Part shown: positions 2,249-28,727 of the stretch, in pieces | How the letters are laid out: every line of letters begins with the position of its first letter | Numbering within the stretch: the stretch's first letter is position 1 | Source of the DNA: a virus | Taxonomy: Duplodnaviria > Caudoviricetes | Strand: one strand, 5' to 3' | Virus record (IMG/VR): IMGVR_UViG_3300017909_002489 | Coordinates: 1 to 40,693 of that record | DNA: 40,693 nucleotides | The notes under the pieces: generated by a model | Told to the model about the DNA's origin: nothing | The model's input: the letters and a program-made list of their open reading frames with translations, nothing else | The model's database searches: none | Program-made: the position numbers and the translations under genes

Positions 2249-3241
2249 TTAGGTTGCGTTAGTCGCAATCGTTGAACCCGAAGTGATTTTGCGGAGTGCC
2301 TCTGTGCGATACAAAGACCACCCACACAGGCTGTACCACCCATATGGGCGGAACCTCGAAAGGCGATCCACAACCGGCCCGAGCCGCACGGAGGGCTCAA
2401 CGGCGCACGCTTCTGCGAGTGCCTGCTGCCCCACGACGAACGTGCTGTACTCGTCCTCACCGCCAGGGCCAGTACCCGTGGCAAGCGGAGCGCGAGAGGT
2501 TTCGATGACGTAAGTGCCACCGAAAACGCCCGTGGTCTGCTCAAGGAGAGCCCCCACGTTTGGCTCCGTGTGCTTCCGAATATCCTCAAACGAAAGCGCA
2601 CCTGTCTCGTTGCGCAAATCGAAAGCGACGTCGGGGTGCATGTACGCGGCGTACAAGGAACCCTGACGCGGAACCACGTTATCTCCGCGGAGCTTGGCAA
2701 CAGCCTTACGGATAGAAGTACCCGTAATAACGTCAGCGTTCAAGTCCTCCGTCTGTCCGGCAGCAGCACCGTCCAGCACGGTGGAAACAACCTTGTCCAG
2801 GCTGTCCACCATGTTGAAGCCGATGAGGTTGGCGATCGCTGGATCAATGTCAGCGAACGCAGTCTCCTGAACGTAACGAGTGTTGACAACCACGTTGCCG
2901 TACTCCTTGAGAACGACGCTAACTTGGTCAACGTCGTCAAGCGCGGCCGCGTCGAGGTCAGTTACCTCTGCCAACGGTGTCGTAGCCTGAGCCAGATCGT
3001 TGTACAGAGAGAATGTGACCGCGTAACCAGGCATCGCCTGTTGGACCGGACGCTTGTCAGCGAGGTCCCGGAATACAACCTGGGACCTCAACTGGAAATC
3101 AATCATCCGGTCATACGCACGCGCAACTAGATCATCAAAGCCTGTGCCCGTCCCACCTGCTGCGAGTGTCGAACTAACCGTCGGCGGCGTCTTGATAGAC
3201 GCACCGGAGTTAGTCGCTGAGTCAATAAAATTGTCAGCCAT
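2249..3241 (-). CDS. Major capsid protein (330 aa)
   Basis: Size, position after the scaffold gene and before a terminator. Motifs such as EYGNVV, YAAYMHPDVAFDLR and GPVVDRLSRFRPYGWY resemble N4-gp56/T7-like capsids. Confidence 0.88.
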   Translation of the reverse strand: MADNFIDSATNSGASIKTPPTVSSTLAAGGTGTGFDDLVARAYDRMIDFQLRSQVVFRDLADKRPVQQAMPGYAVTFSLYNDLAQATTPLAEVTDLDAAALDDVDQVSVVLKEYGNVVVNTRYVQETAFADIDPAIANLIGFNMVDSLDKVVSTVLDGAAAGQTEDLNADVITGTSIRKAVAKLRGDNVVPRQGSLYAAYMHPDVAFDLRNETGALSFEDIRKHTEPNVGALLEQTTGVFGGTYVIETSRAPLATGTGPGGEDEYSTFVVGQQALAEACAVEPSVRLGPVVDRLSRFRPYGWYSLCGWSLYRTEALRKITSGSTIATNAT

Positions 3242-3282: not shown

Positions 3283-3741
3283 TTACTTGACCGGCCCGTA
3301 GGGGTTGCCGAACAGAAGTTCGTTCAACTCCTCTTGACTTTGCGCGTTAGCGATGCGGGTTTGCAGATCACCCGCGTCCACCGCGGTAGCGGCGGACCCA
3401 ACGGAAGCAATACGAGCTGCGGCCTGGACTTCCTCAGAGTCTTTCTGAGGTTGCGTCTCAAGCCCAAATAGTTCAGCGTTCTCAACTATCCAGGCTTCAA
3501 CTTCATCTGTGGTCGTGACCGACTCGGGGATGAACTTGCTGATACGCGCATCCACGCCTTTCTCGGTCAAAACGCCCTCTACGACACTCTTTCGGCTGGC
3601 AGAAGAAAACTCCTCCACTTGCTTGCGGAGTTGGTCCACTTCCTTTTGTTTCGCCTTGTATGCCTTACGGAGTTGTCGAACAACGTCAGTACCCAAATCG
3701 TCATCCAGGTTGTCGATGTCAAACTCGTCGTTTTCGGACAT
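3283..3741 (-). CDS. Capsid scaffolding protein (152 aa; start ATG 3741)
   Basis: Acidic N-terminus, coiled coil (VVRQLRKAYKAKQKEVDQLRKQVEE), directly upstream of capsid. AGGGAG RBS before ATG 3741. Confidence 0.75.
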   Translation of the reverse strand: MSENDEFDIDNLDDDLGTDVVRQLRKAYKAKQKEVDQLRKQVEEFSSASRKSVVEGVLTEKGVDARISKFIPESVTTTDEVEAWIVENAELFGLETQPQKDSEEVQAAARIASVGSAATAVDAGDLQTRIANAQSQEELNELLFGNPYGPVK

Positions 3742-3770
3742 TGGTGTTCTCCCTATCTCTTCTATGTGAA

Positions 3771-3856
3771 TCGCCAGCCACAAAAAACACCTGGGGGAGT
3801 GCCTAATGGCTCTGACTACCGGACTGTTTCTCGCTAGGGGCCGGTCGGTCCTAGTC
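3771..3856 (-). ncRNA. Putative structured RNA leader (H-type pseudoknot plus branched hairpin) of the scaffold/capsid genes
   Basis: CTAGG(3854-3850)/CCTAG(3838-3834) stem whose loop ACCGG can pair with CCGGT(3822-3818). Then an AGCCA/TGGCT stem enclosing GGCAC-TCCCCCAG-GTGTT. Confidence 0.45.
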
Positions 3857-3861
3857 GGAAG

Positions 3862-3940
3862 TGGAGGCGGTGGGACTCGAACCCACGTTCCTTACGCTGC
3901 CCTCGTGGGGATTCTTGTAAGGTCTTTCCTATTCGCCCCC
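3862..3940 (-). ncRNA. tmRNA tRNA-like-domain-only RNA (mini-tmRNA / tRNA-Ala mimic), 79 nt
   Basis: Acceptor GGGGGCG/CGCCTCC with G3:U70 and discriminator A. Stemless D loop AATAGGAAAGA, helix CCTTAC/GTAAGG, AAC linker, T arm GTGGG-TTCGAGT-CCCAC. No anticodon arm, no tag ORF, CCA not encoded. Confidence 0.8.
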
Positions 3941-3946
3941 GCGGTG

Positions 3947-5023
3947 TTACCCGCGATTAGTGTCAAGCGAGGAGCTGGTGATCCCAGACCGACCACCAAA
4001 GCGTGCCCGCTCCCGAGACTGCAAGCCTCGAACCTTTTTCTTTGCGTCCGCATTCAGATCCAACTGCGACTGGACGACTTCACTATCCGTCAGCGAACTA
4101 CCTTCAATGTTGGCAAGCCGCGCCGTTGCGTCCCGAACGACAGCCGCCTTGGTGAACTCTGGCTGATACTGGCCGATGTTCGCGTCATTGTTGCCGGCAA
4201 ACCCAGCAACACCCTGGGCTGTTTCCAGGTCGATGTCCAGCCCAGCGCGACGCGCCCCGCCACCCAGCAACGTTGCGTTAGCGATCTCGTTAATCTTGTT
4301 CTGACTGCGAACCGGATCAAGGACGTACTCAGTCAAAGTCGCTGTATCAAGCCCGTAATACTCCTGCATGGCCTCCAGGGTTTCGGGGGAAGTGTCAGCC
4401 ACGACTCGCGCCGCGTCATTCACGCGAGCACGGACCTCGGACACGCTCACGCTGTAATCGGACACGAGTTCAGCAATAGCGTCGAACTGGCTTTGGGTTC
4501 CATCCGGACCCAGGAAGTCGCGCATACCCGCTTCACGGAACACGCTGCGATACTCGCGCTCCAGACCCAGGTACTCGGACTCGTTGCGAATATCAGTAAC
4601 GCCCTTCCTGCGCAGTTCGACTAACCCCTTGAAGCGCGTTTGGTACGTTTCGGTTTCGGGTATTTTCGCCATGATGACCTCGACGTTGTTACCCCACTCG
4701 CGGATCAAACGGTCAAGGTCACCAATCAGACCCTCCATGCCGCCGAACTCGCGGAATCGGGCAGTCAGGATGGCCTTAGCCTCCTGGTCCTTGCGCCGCC
4801 TTGTTTCAGCCGCTTGTTGCGCTAATGCAGCGTCGATCATTTTCTGAACGTCTGCGCCACTTAAAGTGGGCGTCTCCGGCTGCCTAGGCTGCGGCTGCCG
4901 ATCCTGCGGTTGCGTAGTTAGCGGCGGATTGATGACTGAATCGGCCCAATCCTGAATCCGCTGCATCTCGGCAGCAAACTGAGGCGTTGAAATTGCACCT
5001 AGATCAATCGGCCCAAATACCAT
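3947..5023 (-). CDS. Putative internal virion (ejection) protein (358 aa)
   Basis: Helical, Ala/Glu/Arg-rich ORF in the block between portal and scaffold. Confidence 0.55.
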   Translation of the reverse strand: MVFGPIDLGAISTPQFAAEMQRIQDWADSVINPPLTTQPQDRQPQPRQPETPTLSGADVQKMIDAALAQQAAETRRRKDQEAKAILTARFREFGGMEGLIGDLDRLIREWGNNVEVIMAKIPETETYQTRFKGLVELRRKGVTDIRNESEYLGLEREYRSVFREAGMRDFLGPDGTQSQFDAIAELVSDYSVSVSEVRARVNDAARVVADTSPETLEAMQEYYGLDTATLTEYVLDPVRSQNKINEIANATLLGGGARRAGLDIDLETAQGVAGFAGNNDANIGQYQPEFTKAAVVRDATARLANIEGSSLTDSEVVQSQLDLNADAKKKVRGLQSRERARFGGRSGITSSSLDTNRG

Positions 5024-7054: not shown

Positions 7055-10000
7055 CTAAAGGTTCCACAAGACTGACTCAATAAAGTTCTTGGCATTCGGG
7101 CTTTCAATACTTATTGCTTCGTACTTCTCGTCCCGATCTTTCTTGACGATGTTCCGCATCAAGACTTCTCTCCGAGAGTTGCCAGGAGCCACGGCCAGTA
7201 GTTGTTCTGCCTCACGATGAATGTCGATACTGAGTTGAATGAAATACTCAGAACTACCCTCGGGTAAAGCAGCAGGCTCTTGCGGAGTCCCATACTTCTC
7301 AGTACGCATCCACGACAGGAGGTTTTCTACCTCGGCCAGGGCTTGCAATTTCTCACCCCGTATTGACTTACCATCGCGGTAGGAGTACCGGCCGGTCTTG
7401 AACTTCTCCATGGTTTCGTCGCGCTCGGCGTTGAGAAGTTTCTTGTCCTCCGCATAAGTGGGGGAGTAGGGGTCGAGTTCTCGCTCCCTCTTATCGAACT
7501 TGTATTTCATGCGCGAGATCTCCGCGTCAAACTCGGAGTCCACTATCGACAAAACGCGATCGTCAAACGCCTTCTTGGTGCGCGTGGCAAGGTAATACTT
7601 TGCGATGTAGTGACCCGTGTAGTCGAACTCACCCTCGCGGGGCGCAAGGAACAACGACGCGGATTGGTGCTCCTCGGGGTACGACTTGTAACCGTTCTCC
7701 TCATCGAAATACCACGGAAAAGTGCCTTCCACAGCTCGAAAGTTCGCACGCTGTTGCGTCGTATCTCCGGCGTCCTCGAATGATCCGACCGTGAACGGTA
7801 GGAACGATCCTCCGTCCCAGCCTTCCTCGGTCGTGGGATCAAGTCCGTCAAGAACTCGGTTTACTCGCAACTGCCACCACGAGGCCATGGCGTAATTCCA
7901 TGGATCGTAGATGTCCTCACCCACGGCTTCTTCAACAAGTTTGAGGTATTCCTCGTCCCAAATAACCGTGTCGGTGAAGTCGTAGAACGCATCGGTCATG
8001 TTGTCGATGCCGTTCTGACGCGCCCAATCCGAAACGTTGGTGTCGATCCTTCGCGGGTATGCAGGGAGAGCCCACGACAAGAATTTTTTGGAAATCCACA
8101 ATCCAGTCGAATAGATCTCGGCCGCCTGGTATTCGTTGCTTGCCATGATCTGACCTTGCTCGGCTTCTTCTAGCGGGATAACCGTGCCGTCTTTCATGGT
8201 GATGGTGTCGAACATTCCCCAGCCAGACATCGTTTGCAAAGCCTTCATTAGCGAATCAGCCTGTGCGGTTTGAGCCTGTTCGGTATCGGTGAGATCGCCT
8301 AGGCGTTTGGCCCCCGCGGGAGCTAACGCCTGACCGATGTCCCTCCACATAGATCCGGTTGGTTGATTGAACTGACCGAGGATCAGCGCACGCAACCCGC
8401 CCAACTCCGGCTGCCACGCAAAGAAAGCAGCGGCCGGAACCTGGCCCCACCCGCTTGTAAACGGCGGAATCATGTTCATGGGGTCGGCCGAGGGCGTCAG
8501 GCCCAGAACCTTTCCGCCCAAACCGAACGGCTCAACCTGGGTAAATGGATCGAACTGGCCCTTAAACAATCCGACCATCGGATACATGACCTTCTGAGCG
8601 ATTCCATTCATCGGATACATGAAGTACTTGTCGCCGTAGTCGTCCGTGTAGACAAACCCCGTGTCATCCAACAACGAGTACACCAGGGCCGCCTTAACAA
8701 ACCCTTCTGGGTTTGAGGTTCCCATTCGACGCATCCGCCGGTAGAAATCCTCACTTGCGCGGTAGTAACGCGATACGTTGCGCGCCTTCCATGCCAAGTT
8801 CGATCGGTTCATGGGGTTGTCCATGAACGCTAATGACAGGCTGTAAGCCCGATCAAGGACGTCTTTACCAACCAACTCAGACGCAATCTTGTGGTTGGCG
8901 AGCTGGGCCTTGTCGTCAAGTTCTTCCCAGGTTTCGCCGCGGGCTGACGAGATGGCTCGCGCCAACTGATCCCGTCGGGGTTTAGCCGACCGCCACAGGG
9001 CAATCACGTTGCCCCAGAAGATCGGCTCCCGTGACAGTCGAGCGTTCTGGCGGCCCATCCACATGTAGGCCCGATCCGCCAAGCCATCAAGAGAAAATAG
9101 CGACGGGAGCGTGTTGGCGTAAGGAATGTACTGCTCGCCCTCGAACTCGGGCATCATCACCATTGGACGTTCCTTATCGGGAATCGTCCGCAAGTCTTTG
9201 GCTGTCACGCGGTCAAATGCCAAGACTTCATCTGGTGCGGTTAGTAGTTCTTCGCGCGACCACCCCTTGTAGATGCCGTCCGCGTCAAAGAACATATCGA
9301 CTAGGCGCGTGCTGATCGAACCGTCCGGCTTCTGGAACAAAGCCAAGACGTCCTCAAAGTAGTCATTAGCGAACGGCTGTATGCCCTCGTCCGTGGCTAG
9401 GCGCGAGAACCGTTGAGTGTAAACACCCGAGGGATCATTTCGGATTGCGTCTGCAATCTGCTGCTGCACGCGCGCAACCGTCGTCCGGCCATAAGATATG
9501 TCCGCGATTCCTTGAACCGCGATTGTCCCAATTTCGCCGTCGTTCTGCATAACCGAACGCAACAGGTGATGCCATTGGTCTACGGCGTGACGCGACTTAG
9601 CGGGCGTGCGGTTCCACCCGCTCACCTTTCGGGCAGTCTTAACCTTGCTGTTGAGTTTTGCCACAGCCCTGTTGAGTGCTCGGTACGCCGCTTCGTTGTC
9701 TATGGTTCCTGGCATAACACCAGGAGGGTTCTCGTCTATCTCGTCCAGGGCCATGCGGCCCGCCTTCATCCCGACGGGGTTACGCGCGCTGTTCAGGTAC
9801 GTTGCGCTTTGCGCTACGTCATCCAGCAAGGCCATGCCGTGAGCGGACCCAAGAACTTGGTCAACAATTAGTAGGTCGTCGTCATTCATCAAACCCATCG
9901 AACCCATGCTGCGGCCACCCATCCGGTAGCCAATCAAGCCTTCCATGACCATCTTCCGCCACGGCTCTTGATCGCCGGCTGCGTATCGCACTAGGGCGTC

Positions 10001-13000
10001 CTGCAAAGCCTCGGTGCTGACGCGCGGGGCTAAGACGGGAATAATGATGTTTCGCATGAAGAAGCCAGGGAATCCTCTGGCCTCGCTCCATTCGTCTTGC
10101 CAAGCAGCCTGGGTCTTGCCCCCACCCATTCGCCCGCGGGCTTTTTCGACTGTGCGACCGATAAGCCCTTGAGTTGGCTTCCACGCGACAACGTACTCGC
10201 CATCCAGGTTCTTTTTAACGTACAACTCCCTAGACGCGCGGCGACGAGCCGTAGACGTCATGCGACCCTTTATGAGATCCGTCGTCTTACCGGCGGTCAG
10301 GAACCACAGACCCCATTCCTCGATTGCGTTACGAATGGAGAACCGCCACCCGAACAGCGTCGCAATAGACCAGAAGTTAGTGAACCTTTCCAAGCCGCGG
10401 CTGCCATAAAACATGGCCTGCCCCAGGCCACCCATCTCTTTTCGTAGATCCTCAAAGTCAGTCAGAGTCGGCAAGCGCATCTTGTCTGTGGTCTGATCCA
10501 TGTGCAGCGCGCTCTGCGTTCCCGCATCGTCGGCCGATAGAGAAACACGCGCGGCCGCTTCCTCGGCGGTAACAAAAGGAATTGGAGCTGGCTCTGAGAA
10601 CTCTCCGCGCGTTATCTTCCGTGCAGGCGGGGGAGCGAACCTTGATCCAGGATCGGCTGCCTCGCGCTTGGCGAGCATGAACTCCTCTAAGCGATCATCA
10701 AGTTCCCCACGGATGAGGGCTTGCTCGAATTCCAACCATTCGTCGTCGGTCAATCCAAGATCTGCGTCAAGTTCTTGTTGTTCCTTGCGCGCTTTGGCTC
10801 CGCCACGCGCCCACGGAACAGCAATACGAGGCTGCTTTCCCCGCTTTTGCCCGACCGCAAAGTCCATGTACCAATCTTCGGGAACGCCCTTCCAGCCAGC
10901 TATCGGCTTGCCGGTCTTGGGGTCTATCTTGCGCCCTGGCATATTGATCGGAAGTTCAACGTTGGAGCGACCGAGTTGGCCCGCGTTGTCGGGCAGCCCC
11001 GTGTAGAGCCACGCGATCATGTTGTCAAGGCCCTGATCGTCAGCGATGTTCGACAGCGTGGTCAACGAGATGGTTCCATCGTTGATAAAGCGAGCGTCTA
11101 CACCCAGCGTTCCGCCGACTTCGGATGGAAGTCGGGGTGTCTCTGGCGATCCATTCTCAGGTACGTTTTCTAAGTACCAATCTTTCGGATTTGGGGCGTC
11201 CTGCGGGATTTCGTCCGCGTACCGAAAGTTAGTTGCGTAAAACTCCTCAACAAGCGGGGTGTCAGTAGAAACCTGTTCTCGCCATTCCCGCTTAATATCC
11301 GCAACTATCTGAGGCAGTCGAGCGTTAAACTCCTCTGGCGAGAGACTGCCTTTAAGTGCTTCAATCTCGTCGGCCTTATCGTTAACAATCTCCGACAAAG
11401 TTCGGAACCCCGAATACTCGATCGGTATGCCTCGGGCCGCCTCTGCCGCCGCTTCCGCTGCTTCCTCGGCCGCATCGTCAGCAACCGTCTGCATCTGCGA
11501 CTCAGCAAGTGCCCGCGACGGGCGAGTCGCCTCGGTCATCTCCTGGCCGTACAACTCCGCTTCGCGGCGACCTGTGACCTTGATCTTCTCTGACGAGGTT
11601 TCTAACCACTTGTCAGCCTGCTTCTTACTGACGGAGATACCGCGAGATTGCGCTGCCGCGCGTACAACCGCCGACATCAGCAAGCGACGCTCTCCGATGT
11701 CACCCTGGCGGTATGCAGCCGCAACAGTCTCAGCCATCTTGCGTGGCAGGAACATGCGGGCGTATCGGTACACACCCTTGGCTCCCTGGCCGGTCGTAAG
11801 ATCAATAACCTCATCTACTGCGATGGATGAGAACATCCTGCCGAGCGAATCGAATAATCCTTCGCCCGTGACAATTAATCCGTCTACTGACCCAGCACCA
11901 CGTTTGTAGTCGCCGACCGCTTCGCCGATCTCCGTCGCGTTGTCAGACATCGACTGCGCGATAGTTCCAGCGTTAGTAGTATCGACGTACTTCTGCATGA
12001 TCTTCGCGGCGCGGCCGGTAGGCATCAAATGTGCCGCAACAAGATTGGCTAGGTCGCTGCGAACGGCCCCCGCGCTGGTACGCATAGGAGCCATATCCCC
12101 GCGCTTGATCTGACCGCCTCTGCGGAGCGCGGAGTCGAACGACTCCTTGCCCATTTGGTCAAGGGCCGCCATGACAAAGCGTGGAAGTTCATTAACCGTC
12201 ACGCCTGCCTGTATCGCTTGGGCTTCGACGGCCGCGTAGGACTGAACAAAGTCCATGTTCTTGTCGTCAATGAAGTCTGCGATCTCATCGACGCCGATCT
12301 TGCCGTCGGCATTCCTCGGAACGGTGTCGATCATATCTTCGATGAGGTCGTCGGGAAGTTCCCCGTATTGACGCTGCATACGCTGGCGCGCGCCATCCAG
12401 AGCCAGTCGAGCCTGTACCTGGGCAGCGGTTCCGACCGGAGCCTCGTTGAACGCCTTTGCTAGTTCGTCGTACTTGTTTAGGTCGCTCGCCAGAGCGTTG
12501 AAGTATCGGTACGTCTTGTTGTTAAGGCGGATAGGGCCAATGCCCTTACCGATACGCAATAAAGACCTTGCTCCAACCATCCCCGTGGGCACGGGAGCCA
12601 GGGCCGCTAGTGCGTAACGTGCGGCCTGTACGCCGCGGTAAACCTTTGACGAGGCAATCGTCGGATCAAAAAGGATGCTCGACCCAAAGCCAACGACGTT
12701 GGCTACGTCTTGACGAGTCTCACCCCCGCGGGCTTCTGAGTATTCGTCGCCCGCCGCTCCAAACATAACCTGGCCGGTATTGCCAAGATGCGCGGAATCG
12801 ATCTGCCGCATGAGTTCCGCGAGCTGTGTAGTGCGTAAGCCACGGGTTCCGATGATCCCGCCAATGACTGCTTGCGCTTCCAAGTCATTGGCGTACTCCA
12901 CCCAACTTTCCCAGATATCAAAGTCGGGGTCATCGACAGCCTTGCGGTGGAGGTCAAAGGCCACCTGGATCTCTTTGTCCGAGTAGAGCCGTTGTCCGTT

Positions 13001-13882
13001 CTCATCGGTGGCTTCGTACAGCGAGTCGATGTATTCCTCGTTGTACTTACCCTTCTCGGCTGCGCTCCGTCCTCCAGTCGCGCCGTAAGCAAAAGAACCT
13101 ATGTTGCCTAGCGCGCCCTGCCCGCCAGGAGCGTCAACCGCGTCATAAACGGAAATCATGCCGCCGCGAATCGACTGCATAATTTCTTCGTTGGCGATCA
13201 TGAACGGCGTCATAACTTTTTGCAGAACCCACAACGCACCAGCTACGCCCTTATCCACAATGCTTGGATCTTTGGCGGTCGCCGTAACTTTCTCCGTGGC
13301 TAACTCAAAGGCGATACCGGCGTAGATGGGATCTTCTGCTTGCAGGGTCTTGGCGATGTTCTCAACTGCGATCGCATTCTTATTGGGATCTTCCAGGATC
13401 AACTTCGCCATGCGATCGGACGCAAGATTCACTTTGCGCCAATCAATCATGTTGCTGACGTCATCCTTGGAAACCTCAAGACCAGCATCCTCGGCCTGGG
13501 CCAAAATCTGCGCCCAGACATTCAGGTCGTCAAGGTTGCGAGGGTTTTCAAGGGACTGCCAGTTGGCCGTGAGCATCTTCTGGGTTTCCAGAAACGTCTG
13601 ACCAGGAGAGTAGTTGTTCTCCTCGGCGTAGTAGTCGTACATCGACCCGCCGTACTGAGCACCCTTGGCTTGCGCTTCGTCGGCACGCATCGCTTTCTTG
13701 TTAAGTTCACGATTCGTGTCGATGTAATCCAATCCGGCCGCTTCGACGGCCGTATCACCACGCATATCTTCGTATGGTGAAATCAGTTCGTCGGCTTTCT
13801 TGGTGTCAGCCAGAACTTTGTCGAGGTAGGGCCACGGATTACGCCGCTGCGCGTCCCGCTCTAAGCGGTCTGCGGTTGCCAT
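7055..13882 (-). CDS. Very large internal virion / DNA-ejection protein (2275 aa)
   Basis: 6.8-kb ORF, helical with hydrophobic segments, lacking tape-measure periodicity. Position typical of large podovirus core proteins. Confidence 0.65.
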   Translation of the reverse strand: MATADRLERDAQRRNPWPYLDKVLADTKKADELISPYEDMRGDTAVEAAGLDYIDTNRELNKKAMRADEAQAKGAQYGGSMYDYYAEENNYSPGQTFLETQKMLTANWQSLENPRNLDDLNVWAQILAQAEDAGLEVSKDDVSNMIDWRKVNLASDRMAKLILEDPNKNAIAVENIAKTLQAEDPIYAGIAFELATEKVTATAKDPSIVDKGVAGALWVLQKVMTPFMIANEEIMQSIRGGMISVYDAVDAPGGQGALGNIGSFAYGATGGRSAAEKGKYNEEYIDSLYEATDENGQRLYSDKEIQVAFDLHRKAVDDPDFDIWESWVEYANDLEAQAVIGGIIGTRGLRTTQLAELMRQIDSAHLGNTGQVMFGAAGDEYSEARGGETRQDVANVVGFGSSILFDPTIASSKVYRGVQAARYALAALAPVPTGMVGARSLLRIGKGIGPIRLNNKTYRYFNALASDLNKYDELAKAFNEAPVGTAAQVQARLALDGARQRMQRQYGELPDDLIEDMIDTVPRNADGKIGVDEIADFIDDKNMDFVQSYAAVEAQAIQAGVTVNELPRFVMAALDQMGKESFDSALRRGGQIKRGDMAPMRTSAGAVRSDLANLVAAHLMPTGRAAKIMQKYVDTTNAGTIAQSMSDNATEIGEAVGDYKRGAGSVDGLIVTGEGLFDSLGRMFSSIAVDEVIDLTTGQGAKGVYRYARMFLPRKMAETVAAAYRQGDIGERRLLMSAVVRAAAQSRGISVSKKQADKWLETSSEKIKVTGRREAELYGQEMTEATRPSRALAESQMQTVADDAAEEAAEAAAEAARGIPIEYSGFRTLSEIVNDKADEIEALKGSLSPEEFNARLPQIVADIKREWREQVSTDTPLVEEFYATNFRYADEIPQDAPNPKDWYLENVPENGSPETPRLPSEVGGTLGVDARFINDGTISLTTLSNIADDQGLDNMIAWLYTGLPDNAGQLGRSNVELPINMPGRKIDPKTGKPIAGWKGVPEDWYMDFAVGQKRGKQPRIAVPWARGGAKARKEQQELDADLGLTDDEWLEFEQALIRGELDDRLEEFMLAKREAADPGSRFAPPPARKITRGEFSEPAPIPFVTAEEAAARVSLSADDAGTQSALHMDQTTDKMRLPTLTDFEDLRKEMGGLGQAMFYGSRGLERFTNFWSIATLFGWRFSIRNAIEEWGLWFLTAGKTTDLIKGRMTSTARRRASRELYVKKNLDGEYVVAWKPTQGLIGRTVEKARGRMGGGKTQAAWQDEWSEARGFPGFFMRNIIIPVLAPRVSTEALQDALVRYAAGDQEPWRKMVMEGLIGYRMGGRSMGSMGLMNDDDLLIVDQVLGSAHGMALLDDVAQSATYLNSARNPVGMKAGRMALDEIDENPPGVMPGTIDNEAAYRALNRAVAKLNSKVKTARKVSGWNRTPAKSRHAVDQWHHLLRSVMQNDGEIGTIAVQGIADISYGRTTVARVQQQIADAIRNDPSGVYTQRFSRLATDEGIQPFANDYFEDVLALFQKPDGSISTRLVDMFFDADGIYKGWSREELLTAPDEVLAFDRVTAKDLRTIPDKERPMVMMPEFEGEQYIPYANTLPSLFSLDGLADRAYMWMGRQNARLSREPIFWGNVIALWRSAKPRRDQLARAISSARGETWEELDDKAQLANHKIASELVGKDVLDRAYSLSLAFMDNPMNRSNLAWKARNVSRYYRASEDFYRRMRRMGTSNPEGFVKAALVYSLLDDTGFVYTDDYGDKYFMYPMNGIAQKVMYPMVGLFKGQFDPFTQVEPFGLGGKVLGLTPSADPMNMIPPFTSGWGQVPAAAFFAWQPELGGLRALILGQFNQPTGSMWRDIGQALAPAGAKRLGDLTDTEQAQTAQADSLMKALQTMSGWGMFDTITMKDGTVIPLEEAEQGQIMASNEYQAAEIYSTGLWISKKFLSWALPAYPRRIDTNVSDWARQNGIDNMTDAFYDFTDTVIWDEEYLKLVEEAVGEDIYDPWNYAMASWWQLRVNRVLDGLDPTTEEGWDGGSFLPFTVGSFEDAGDTTQQRANFRAVEGTFPWYFDEENGYKSYPEEHQSASLFLAPREGEFDYTGHYIAKYYLATRTKKAFDDRVLSIVDSEFDAEISRMKYKFDKRERELDPYSPTYAEDKKLLNAERDETMEKFKTGRYSYRDGKSIRGEKLQALAEVENLLSWMRTEKYGTPQEPAALPEGSSEYFIQLSIDIHREAEQLLAVAPGNSRREVLMRNIVKKDRDEKYEAISIESPNAKNFIESVLWNL

Positions 13883-20169: not shown

Positions 20170-20571
20170 ATGACCAACGTAAGTGCAGACACCTGCCGCA
20201 AGGTAACCGCCGAGATCCGCGCAGCCGTGGAACCGATCCTGGAAGCCCACGGGCTCACCATGGACAAGACGAGCGCGAAGTACGGCGACCTATACGCCCT
20301 CACGATCAAAGCCCACGGAAAAAGCGTGAACGCGGACGGGATCGACGAGGGCGACCCGCAGGTTCAGGACTGGTTCACGATGGCCCGAATCCATGGAGTG
20401 CCAGACCCCGCGGAGTGGATGACCACACCCCGCAAAATCCGCGGCCGCGATTACGTCGTAGTGGGCTGGGCGTACCGGAGCCGAAAGTACCCGCTGCTCA
20501 TGCGCGACCTGTCCGACGGCAAGGTCTACAAGTTCCAGGAAAGCGTGCTGGAGCAATTCCTCAACGTCTAG
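20170..20571 (+). CDS. Early hypothetical protein (133 aa)
   Basis: ATG after box 2; C-terminal GWAYRSRKYPLLMRDLSDGKVYKF. Confidence 0.85.
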   Translation: MTNVSADTCRKVTAEIRAAVEPILEAHGLTMDKTSAKYGDLYALTIKAHGKSVNADGIDEGDPQVQDWFTMARIHGVPDPAEWMTTPRKIRGRDYVVVGWAYRSRKYPLLMRDLSDGKVYKFQESVLEQFLNV

Positions 20572-20633
20572 GCGAAACCGCCCCACGGGGCGGTCTAGCG
20601 GCTTGACGACCCGCTACTGACGAGCCGAGTCAA
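20571..20633 (+). ncRNA. Type II hammerhead ribozyme 1 (predicted cleavage after C20595)
   Basis: GGC-GAAA-CCGCCCC-AC-GGGGCGG-TC-TAGCGG-CTTGACGAC-CCGCTA-CTGACGA-GCC. Full catalytic core, stems I-III, GUC site, and a loop I TTGAC / 3' GTCAA pseudoknot. Confidence 0.93.
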
Positions 20634-20643
20634 AACATTGGAG
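20634..20643 (+). repeat. AACATTGGAG start-associated box 3
   Basis: Exact 10-mer abutting ribozyme 1, 5 nt before ATG 20649. Confidence 0.9.
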
Positions 20644-21124: not shown

Positions 21125-21711
21125 GCGAGAGCAAGAAAAGAATCGACGCTGCCCTAGACAAGATTGCCGAGGCGATGGGCGACCTAACCGAAGCAGTACG
21201 GACAGCCGACGACCACGATTGGGCAAACAATTACCTGTCGGCCATGTTCGACGTCGCTGGGTTCACCCAATCGACCGAAGAAGCCCAGCACGCGCTCATG
21301 CTCACAGAGCAAGATCGACGGGAAACCTGGAACAACAATCGGCCGCCCATAGATCTGAACGCCGTGGGTTACGTCGTCCGACAGATCACGGGCTACGACG
21401 TCAAGTTGGAGCAGACCGGAGGCGGAACCGCCACCATGTACGTCTACGCCGACGGAATCGACAACGCCCTCGCGGTCGCTGGGCCTGGATGGTTCACGAC
21501 CCCATCGTGGACAAAAGCACTCGCGGATTGGGACGGGTTCTGCATTGGCTTGGACGACGATGGCGAGGACTTCTGGTGGTATCCGCAGCAGGAGTTCCCC
21601 TGCCCGACCGACCAGGAGATTGCCCAGATCATCGCCGACTACGCCGGAGCCACCCACGAGAACATCCGCACGGATTGGAGGAACGTAGACGTCAAGCCCT
21701 CCTGGGCCTAG
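21121..21711 (+). CDS. Early hypothetical protein (196 aa)
   Basis: ATGA overlap, AGGAGG RBS; EQTGGGTATMY motif. Confidence 0.8.
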   Translation: MSESKKRIDAALDKIAEAMGDLTEAVRTADDHDWANNYLSAMFDVAGFTQSTEEAQHALMLTEQDRRETWNNNRPPIDLNAVGYVVRQITGYDVKLEQTGGGTATMYVYADGIDNALAVAGPGWFTTPSWTKALADWDGFCIGLDDDGEDFWWYPQQEFPCPTDQEIAQIIADYAGATHENIRTDWRNVDVKPSWA

Positions 21712-21769
21712 CGAAACGCCCGAGAGGGCGTCGCGCGGAGTGCCGACCCGCGCCTGATGAGCAGAGGCA
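21711..21769 (+). ncRNA. Type II hammerhead ribozyme 2 (predicted cleavage after C21732)
   Basis: GC-GAAA-CGCCC-GAGA-GGGCG-TC-GCGCGG-AGTGCCGAC-CCGCGC-CTGATGA-GC. Full core, GNRA-capped stem III, 2-bp stem II, and a loop I TGCC / 3' GGCA pseudoknot. Confidence 0.92.
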
Positions 21770-21771
21770 GA

Positions 21772-28365: not shown

Positions 28366-28727
28366 GAGATACCACCCCACCGGAGCAGGTTGATGAACTC
28401 GTCCACGGTCATCACGATGCGACCCTCGCCAGGGCCAGACTGACGAGTCTTGGTGGCGACGAACGCGATCGTGGGCTTGTCGTACTTCTCGCTGTAATTG
28501 TCGGCCTCTGTGAACGCTTGCCGCAGAAAATCTTTCATCTTGTCCCATGCGGAGCGCACGTTCTTGCACTCGCCAATGGCGTCAAAGAACTTTGTGCGGA
28601 TGGAGATGTCCCCGATGTCTTTACTGCCAGCCCGCGGTAGCCGGCGGGCGTCGAGTCCCATCTCGTTGAGGTAGTTCTCTAGGTCGCGCTCCCATGCGCT
28701 GCCCTTCCGCTTGTTCGCGCTACTCAT
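28362..28727 (-). CDS. Holliday junction resolvase-like PD-(D/E)XK nuclease (121 aa)
   Basis: NKRKGSAWERDL...DIGDI...ECKN, an archaeal-type/phage resolvase pattern. Confidence 0.8.
   Translation of the reverse strand: MSSANKRKGSAWERDLENYLNEMGLDARRLPRAGSKDIGDISIRTKFFDAIGECKNVRSAWDKMKDFLRQAFTEADNYSEKYDKPTIAFVATKTRQSGPGEGRIVMTVDEFINLLRWGGIS

Follow-up and report, generated by a model that had tools for sequence, protein, structure and literature searches.

A tRNA-like domain without a message upstream of the capsid genes

What use would a phage have for a tmRNA without its message? The question is raised by a 79-nt gene on the minus strand of an uncultured caudovirus (IMG/VR record IMGVR_UViG_3300017909_002489), whose complete 40.7-kb record, with terminal repeats, is the window analyzed here (40,693 nucleotides). 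The gene (3862..3940, from G1 to the discriminator A73) has the geometry of tmRNA's tRNA-like domain (TLD). The original prediction had described its parts from the letters alone, and all of them were found, on the minus strand. The acceptor stem of 7 bp (3940-3934/3869-3863) joins a 5′ strand starting with G1, G2 and G3 (3934..3940) to a 3′ strand (3861..3869) that carries U70, A73 (3862) and C74 (3861), and thus contains the alanine identity pair G3:U70. Next come a stemless D loop of 11 nt (3923..3933), made up of A8, GG and then NN-A-G19, ending in GA and lacking the YGAC motif, and a helix-2a-like arm of 33 nt (3890..3922) that replaces the message domain and consists of a 6-bp helix (3922-3917/3895-3890), an internal loop and a 3-bp apical hairpin (3910-3900). 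A 3-nt linker, AAC (3887..3889), lies at the position of tmRNA G333-A334-C335 and leads to a T arm (3870..3886) with 5 bp and a canonical 7-nt loop. The bases following A73 are CUU, hence CCA is not encoded.

The TLD shape is that of the minimum-energy fold (−29.3 kcal/mol, z −1.88, equalled by 8 of 200 shuffles), and a TLD descriptor had a single match in the window and none in 200 simulated ones. Of the detection programs that had been proposed as checks, ARAGORN called no gene in the window, the TLD included, and the Rfam tmRNA model (RF00023) gave a match of 40.9 bits (E 2e-14) that does not reach the gathering score of 47. In the RF00023 alignment both ends of the model are matched and 23 nt stand for 314 inner positions, so that the two halves enclose no message domain, with neither a resume codon nor a tag frame nor pseudoknots. 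The Rfam scan gave no second match to the tmRNA family in the window. A two-piece (permuted) tmRNA was rejected, the 5′ half coming before the 3′ half and the window holding no match to the permuted model; the lone match to that model (L067, 24.4 bits, E 0.53) was judged to be due to chance.

The element begins 6 nt after the stop codon of the upstream gene (3947..5023, minus strand, 358 aa, PHROG 8424, unknown function), as had been noted. Downstream, also on the minus strand, lie a conserved leader RNA (3742..3855), a 152-aa gene (3283..3741) and the major capsid protein gene (2249..3241, PHROG 1357). The earlier assignment of scaffold and capsid holds fully for the capsid gene; the scaffold is putative, the role of this protein (PHROG 7813, unknown function) being assigned from position only. 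Because the capsid and the terminase resemble those of Streptomyces Beephvirinae (42-45% identity), we infer an actinobacterial host. A six-frame search of the complete phage record found no SmpB gene. Elsewhere in the window, two type II hammerhead ribozymes, at 20570-20635 and 21709-21770 on the plus strand, scored above the Rfam cut-off. The genes at 19.8-25 kb are apparently on the plus strand, and each hammerhead sits between two of them, directly before a similar Shine-Dalgarno (SD) sequence and start codon. A 2275-aa open reading frame (7055-13882, minus strand) that follows the portal gene gave no match in PHROG and Pfam scans.

Conservation across relatives

Loci of relatives were collected through the capsid protein and not through the RNA. 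Among the first 30, a T-arm scan with no G:U filter found a match at the same site in 20, all 20 with G3:U70; of the remaining 10, 4 were too short upstream and 6 had a different tiny element. A covariance model built on 21 sequences, with rows chosen by a G:U filter, found 69 matches when run on 100 sources and 56 when run on 80, the loci being redundant. The 69 include the window, the mycobacteriophage DS6A, one tRNA-Ala and one cut-off match. From the hits, 67 were hand-picked against duplicates, leaving 57 distinct RNAs of 70 to 97 nt from capsid-linked phage loci. G1-C72, G2-C71, A73 and C74 are present in all 57, G3:U70 in 56, and A8 and a linker of the form NAC in 54 each. Since the model was trained on G:U-filtered rows, it is the unfiltered samples that carry weight, namely the T-arm scan above and a sample anchored on the leader, in which 14 of 15 TLDs have G3:U70.

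In the 21-row alignment the acceptor and T stems are 100% paired, with G1-C72, G2-C71 and G3:U70 constant (these being rows picked with the G:U filter) and two-sided changes at 4 of the 7 acceptor pairs and 4 of the 5 T-stem pairs. The proposed structure outscores all slid versions of itself (covariation of 0.69 versus at most 0.33). Helix 2a is 60% paired in the MAFFT alignment, where it is poorly aligned, and folded singly its arms form a stem in nearly all members; the apical loop is free to vary in length and sequence. The decay without compensatory changes that had been named as a sign against the prediction was looked for in the relatives; the stems covary instead, and the compensatory changes span loci with capsids only 56-65% identical. 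In an Rfam scan of 16 loci, tmRNA was the best match at the site in 7, one of them partial, and one member (L081) had its top score on the tRNA model. Searched by BLAST in cultured phages and plasmids, the element returned T-arm matches only, and a scan of viral contigs with a strict TLD pattern gave 2 weak loci and is uninformative on spread. A tRNA-Ala (RF00005) was rejected given the frequency of A8, the lack of a D stem, the variable apical loop and the negative ARAGORN result. Judged from these alignments, the TLD family is real and under clear selection in a whole uncultured phage lineage.

Relationship to tmRNA and to the DS6A RNA

For comparison we used 37 full-length tmRNAs, none of them actinobacterial, of which 36 could be parsed; two phylum draws gave mostly the same genomes. 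In this set without actinobacterial tmRNAs, C or U before G19, the YGAC motif and the linker GAC were found in 36 of the 36 parsed molecules, and among the full-length ones A8 was present in 32 of 37, C74 in 37 of 37 and an encoded CCA in 9 of 37. The family shares with RF00023 the acceptor stem, alanine identity, A8, G19, A334-C335, the T arm and C74, with A8, G19, A334 and C74 as common single bases. It differs in that the gene is devoid of message domain, pseudoknots and tag, the D loop is one base shorter and the linker is not fixed as GAC. The D loop has the form GG-NN-AG, with YGAC in 0 of 57 members versus all 36 parsed tmRNAs and DS6A; position 18 is A and not C or U, the gap from GG to G19 is 3 nt in 50 of 57 members versus 4-5 in tmRNA, and the A20/G333 combination of tmRNA is found in 1 of 57.

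These bases face SmpB. According to PMC8363625, G19 sits on a hydrophobic patch of SmpB, stacked on C18, while A15, U17 and A334 surround SmpB Trp122, and weakening of the C18-G19 stacking destabilises the complex. The two best-known contacts, G19 and A334, are thus kept in the family, and neighbouring bases are altered. Because the D loop has no YGAC while G19 and A334 are retained, we consider binding of SmpB by these RNAs only plausible.

The precedent that the original prediction had named, a TLD-only gene in DS6A, was borne out by PMC4131195 (Hudson et al. 2014) and PMC11915505, where it is a TLD-only (CDS-less) tmRNA (tmRNA Website tmID 11587), and by the DS6A genome itself (JN698994). 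The RNA is 80 nt long (28478-28557, between gp33 and gp34), scores 43.2 bits on the Rfam tmRNA model, also below threshold, and in BLAST has a full-length match to DS6A alone. With our family model, whose training set did not include it, it reaches 53.6 bits, compared with 28-35 for tRNA-Ala genes and 21-35 for the ends of full tmRNAs. This match, the fold and the RF00023 alignment support reading the element as a mini-tmRNA of the DS6A kind. Both are about 80 nt with G3:U70, A73, C74, unencoded CCA, a stemless D loop and no tag, and in both the helix-2 arm is short, its internal loop A-rich and its apical hairpin small. However, DS6A has C8 and retains UCGAC in its D loop, where the family has GG-NN-AG, and its site is not before a capsid leader, whereas the family occupies the tRNA-array site of Beephvirinae-like phages. 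CDS-less tmRNAs are also described for organelles, in mitochondria and as plastid genes of ca. 65 bp in Mallomonadaceae (PMC11915505). They likewise consist of a TLD with no tag frame and are thought to act with SmpB, but they serve the translation of their own cell with a matching SmpB, whereas a phage-borne TLD would use that of the host.

The TLD-only kind is therefore already published, in DS6A and some organelles, and what is new here is the D-loop variant. We found no published description of the family or of this variant, in searches with limited coverage of subscription papers, and as far as these searches show the phage TLD-only RNAs in print come from one phage. These sequences may be listed among the 10,006 candidate viral RNAs in the PMC10690425 supplements, or in the tmRNA database that PMC11915505 describes.

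The capsid leader and its optional cargo

The leader directly downstream of the TLD is a separate RNA. It contains an H-type pseudoknot (3854-3850/3838-3834 and 3845-3841/3822-3818) and then a stem (3816-3812/3777-3773) that has an internal loop and a C-rich loop, the latter a possible pairing partner of the putative scaffold gene's SD at 3753-3749. In two loci (L361 and L302) changes in the C-rich loop go along with changes in the purine tract that precedes the start codon, as SD pairing predicts. In 29 sequences, the leader's 19 proposed pairs show 98.4% pairing, and 11 of them have two-sided changes. The leader matched nothing in Rfam 15 or in BLAST against phages, and scanning viral sequences by pattern yielded 120 loci out of ca. 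440 estimated; FlowerPower, a cultured Streptomyces phage, has a weak trace of its second half only. We rejected the idea that its pseudoknot is the displaced message domain of the TLD, as it is present with no TLD in most loci and the bases that follow form a covarying stem. In metatranscriptomes, five runs (searched as contigs only) contained 7-12% of the words of positions 3300-4400 of the window, and six contigs from these five runs reach the leader, ending at 3832, 3844 (X1), 3844 (X2), 3832 (X3), 3802 (X4) and 3847 (X5). None of the six extends over the TLD; RNAs of 80 nt are lost in such libraries. These ends would be in line with a capsid mRNA whose start is at the leader, a stop of the reverse transcriptase at the pseudoknot being also possible, and we do not count them as evidence.

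Among 102 distinct regions upstream of the leader, 15 hold a TLD, 3 a tiny tRNA-like RNA and 1 hairpins, 1 is too short, and 82 (81 plus L332, added by eye) lead from the upstream gene directly into the leader across a short AU-rich motif, with no tRNA-like element. Since most of these regions hold none (86 of the 101 long enough to judge), the TLD is optional cargo 5′ of the leader. In a capsid tree made with a quick method (79 distinct rows from 87 loci), the TLD is found in 62 rows and on both main branches, with at least five changes forced by well-supported branches. It was repeatedly lost or replaced, and 9 of the 79 rows are free of any tRNA-like element; on this pattern of presence, the gene is dispensable. 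The TLD of L011 is nearly identical to those of L091, L161 and L104, across the main branches, which suggests exchange of the gene between phages.

In most carriers the TLD adjoins the leader. Where other genes have split the two (L042, L085, L106, L134, L135, L144, L145, L178, L182 and L193), the TLD remains whole and retains its alanine identity, and the leader is usually adjoined by another tRNA or tRNA-like element (L042, L085, L106, L134, L135 and L193). In four of these loci an open reading frame has come between (L042:2027-2380, L135:317-770, L144 and L145), which, judged by eye from its motifs, resembles an HNH endonuclease. In L085, L178, L182 and L106 the intervening stretch holds small tRNA clusters and short repeated hairpins, i.e., the TLD can head a tRNA array. 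Other relatives have single tRNAs or tiny tRNA-like RNAs at the site. The latter form a second class of ca. 45-55 nt directly 5′ of the leader (L020-L023, L027, L028, L092, L094, L097, L134, L135, L042, L193, L265, L295 and L320), with an acceptor stem, one small hairpin, a T-like arm with a non-standard loop and an A-C end; G3:U70 was absent in those inspected. Another form (L057:39-79) is a TLD derivative of ca. 40 nt that lacks the helix-2 arm, pairs G3 with C70 and encodes CCA. Five cultured Streptomyces phages, the Beephvirinae FlowerPower, Kumquat, Immanuel3 and Manuel together with Abafar, have 14-22 annotated tRNA genes, including a short tRNA-Ala, at the same site, from the upstream virion gene to the pre-capsid gene. 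Unlike the TLD family, these arrays are made of anticodon-bearing tRNAs, and on the five phages the family model gave tRNA-level scores only (at most 35 bits) and no TLD-only gene. The FlowerPower array has an unannotated gap of 245 nt (L032:4537-4782), and similar gaps are present in Kumquat and Manuel. What stands just before the capsid leader differs between phages, with tRNA array, TLD, single tRNAs and tiny tRNA-like RNAs substituting for one another.

Possible roles of the TLD RNA

The reading that we prefer, and to which we give an even chance, is that the RNA, cut out and alanylated, would compete with host tmRNA late in infection. Structure, covariation, alanine identity bases and position are observed, as are the missing tag domain and the lack of a phage SmpB; beyond them, we infer expression, processing, charging, SmpB binding and an effect on tagging. 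The TLD would be transcribed late together with the capsid genes and released by host tRNA-processing enzymes, and host enzymes would complete CCA from C74 and charge the RNA with alanine. The charged RNA would then compete for host SmpB and stalled ribosomes, titrating the former and/or entering the latter to add alanine with no degradation tag, two of the functions that the original prediction had listed, and the outcome would be a damping of host trans-translation during the synthesis of virion proteins.

The primary paper for the inhibition of tmRNA by an RNA of the DS6A type is reportedly Mao et al. 2009. According to PMC4131195, an RNA similar to that of DS6A strongly inhibits tmRNA whether chargeable or not, perhaps by titration of SmpB, and according to PMC11915505 the DS6A form itself inhibits tmRNA in Escherichia coli. 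Polyalanine has been made in vitro by a TLD plus SmpB, as cited in PMC3929946 and PMC2481249. Because G3:U70 is strictly conserved although titration alone needs no charging, its conservation suggests that the charged form matters and would favour ribosome entry as part of the role. The departure of the SmpB-facing D loop from tmRNA, the dispensability of the gene and the incomplete pairing of helix 2a argue against competition for SmpB. A more radical version, in which the altered elbow is the mark of an active tag-less rescue RNA and not of a passive SmpB sponge, the RNA being produced along with the capsid message, taking over stalled ribosomes late in infection for alanine tailing and possibly having its need for SmpB altered or gone, seems to us doubtful.

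Among the alternatives, the one that survives best, though we consider it rather unlikely, is that the RNA, once excised and alanylated, acts without SmpB, as a decoy or competitor for whatever reads the acceptor ends or elbows of tRNAs (anti-phage toxins that cut or modify tRNAs, EF-Tu or AlaRS are candidates). Its ancestor would possibly be a tRNA-Ala of a phage, with D stem and anticodon since lost. In tRNA numbering, the D loop runs G18-G19-N20-N20a-A21-G22, a spacing that GG-NN-AG matches, with YGAC missing. The site also speaks for such a role, being that of the tRNA arrays with their short tRNA-Ala in the Streptomyces relatives and of single tRNAs or tiny tRNA-like RNAs elsewhere, as does the preference of L081 for the tRNA model. 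On the other hand, the family shows several traits of tmRNA (A8, the 3-nt NAC linker, the pair G19/A334 and a D loop with no stem), tmRNA was also the best match in 7 of the 16 scanned loci, one of them partially, and no defence partner was identified. The original prediction had listed a decoy for anti-phage tRNA nucleases; where these are anticodon nucleases the idea fits badly, the RNA having no loop that resembles an anticodon loop, and the free variation of the apical loop argues against it as well.

Equally foreseen was a role as a punctuation mark, with RNase P and 3′ nucleases cutting at the TLD and freeing the capsid mRNA from the leader on. The TLD adjoins the leader in most carriers, a displaced one is usually replaced there by another tRNA or tRNA-like element, and C74 is invariant, all of which would suit a processing or 5′-protection mark. 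Yet most of the clade does without any tRNA-like element before the leader (82 of 102 upstream regions and, for the closer relatives, 9 of the 79 tree rows), and G3:U70, which punctuation does not require, is retained in displaced TLDs. We therefore regard punctuation as improbable as the main role; processing at the TLD probably does happen, as a by-product of the release of the RNA. Finally, a relic, either a non-functional attP fragment of host ssrA, which is often an integration target (PMC11915505), or a decaying tmRNA gene, is hardly credible and largely refuted by the covariation across loci with such divergent capsids, since despite the patchy presence of the TLD and a tyrosine integrase in the phage (33491-34498, with no match in cultured phages), the element lies inside the virion genes, separated from the integrase by ca. 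30 kb when counted along the window or ca. 11 kb round the circle, and has both halves of the acceptor stem.

Implications for phage biology

An uncultured phage lineage carries TLD-only RNAs that ARAGORN misses and that fall under the Rfam cut-off. Their 57 natural variants show which bases of the TLD matter once the message is gone. They depart from tmRNA exactly at the site where SmpB binds, and so offer a direct way to test if phages retune ribosome rescue, and by what means. If the RNA were an active rescue RNA, host trans-translation would be turned into tag-less alanine tailing late in infection.
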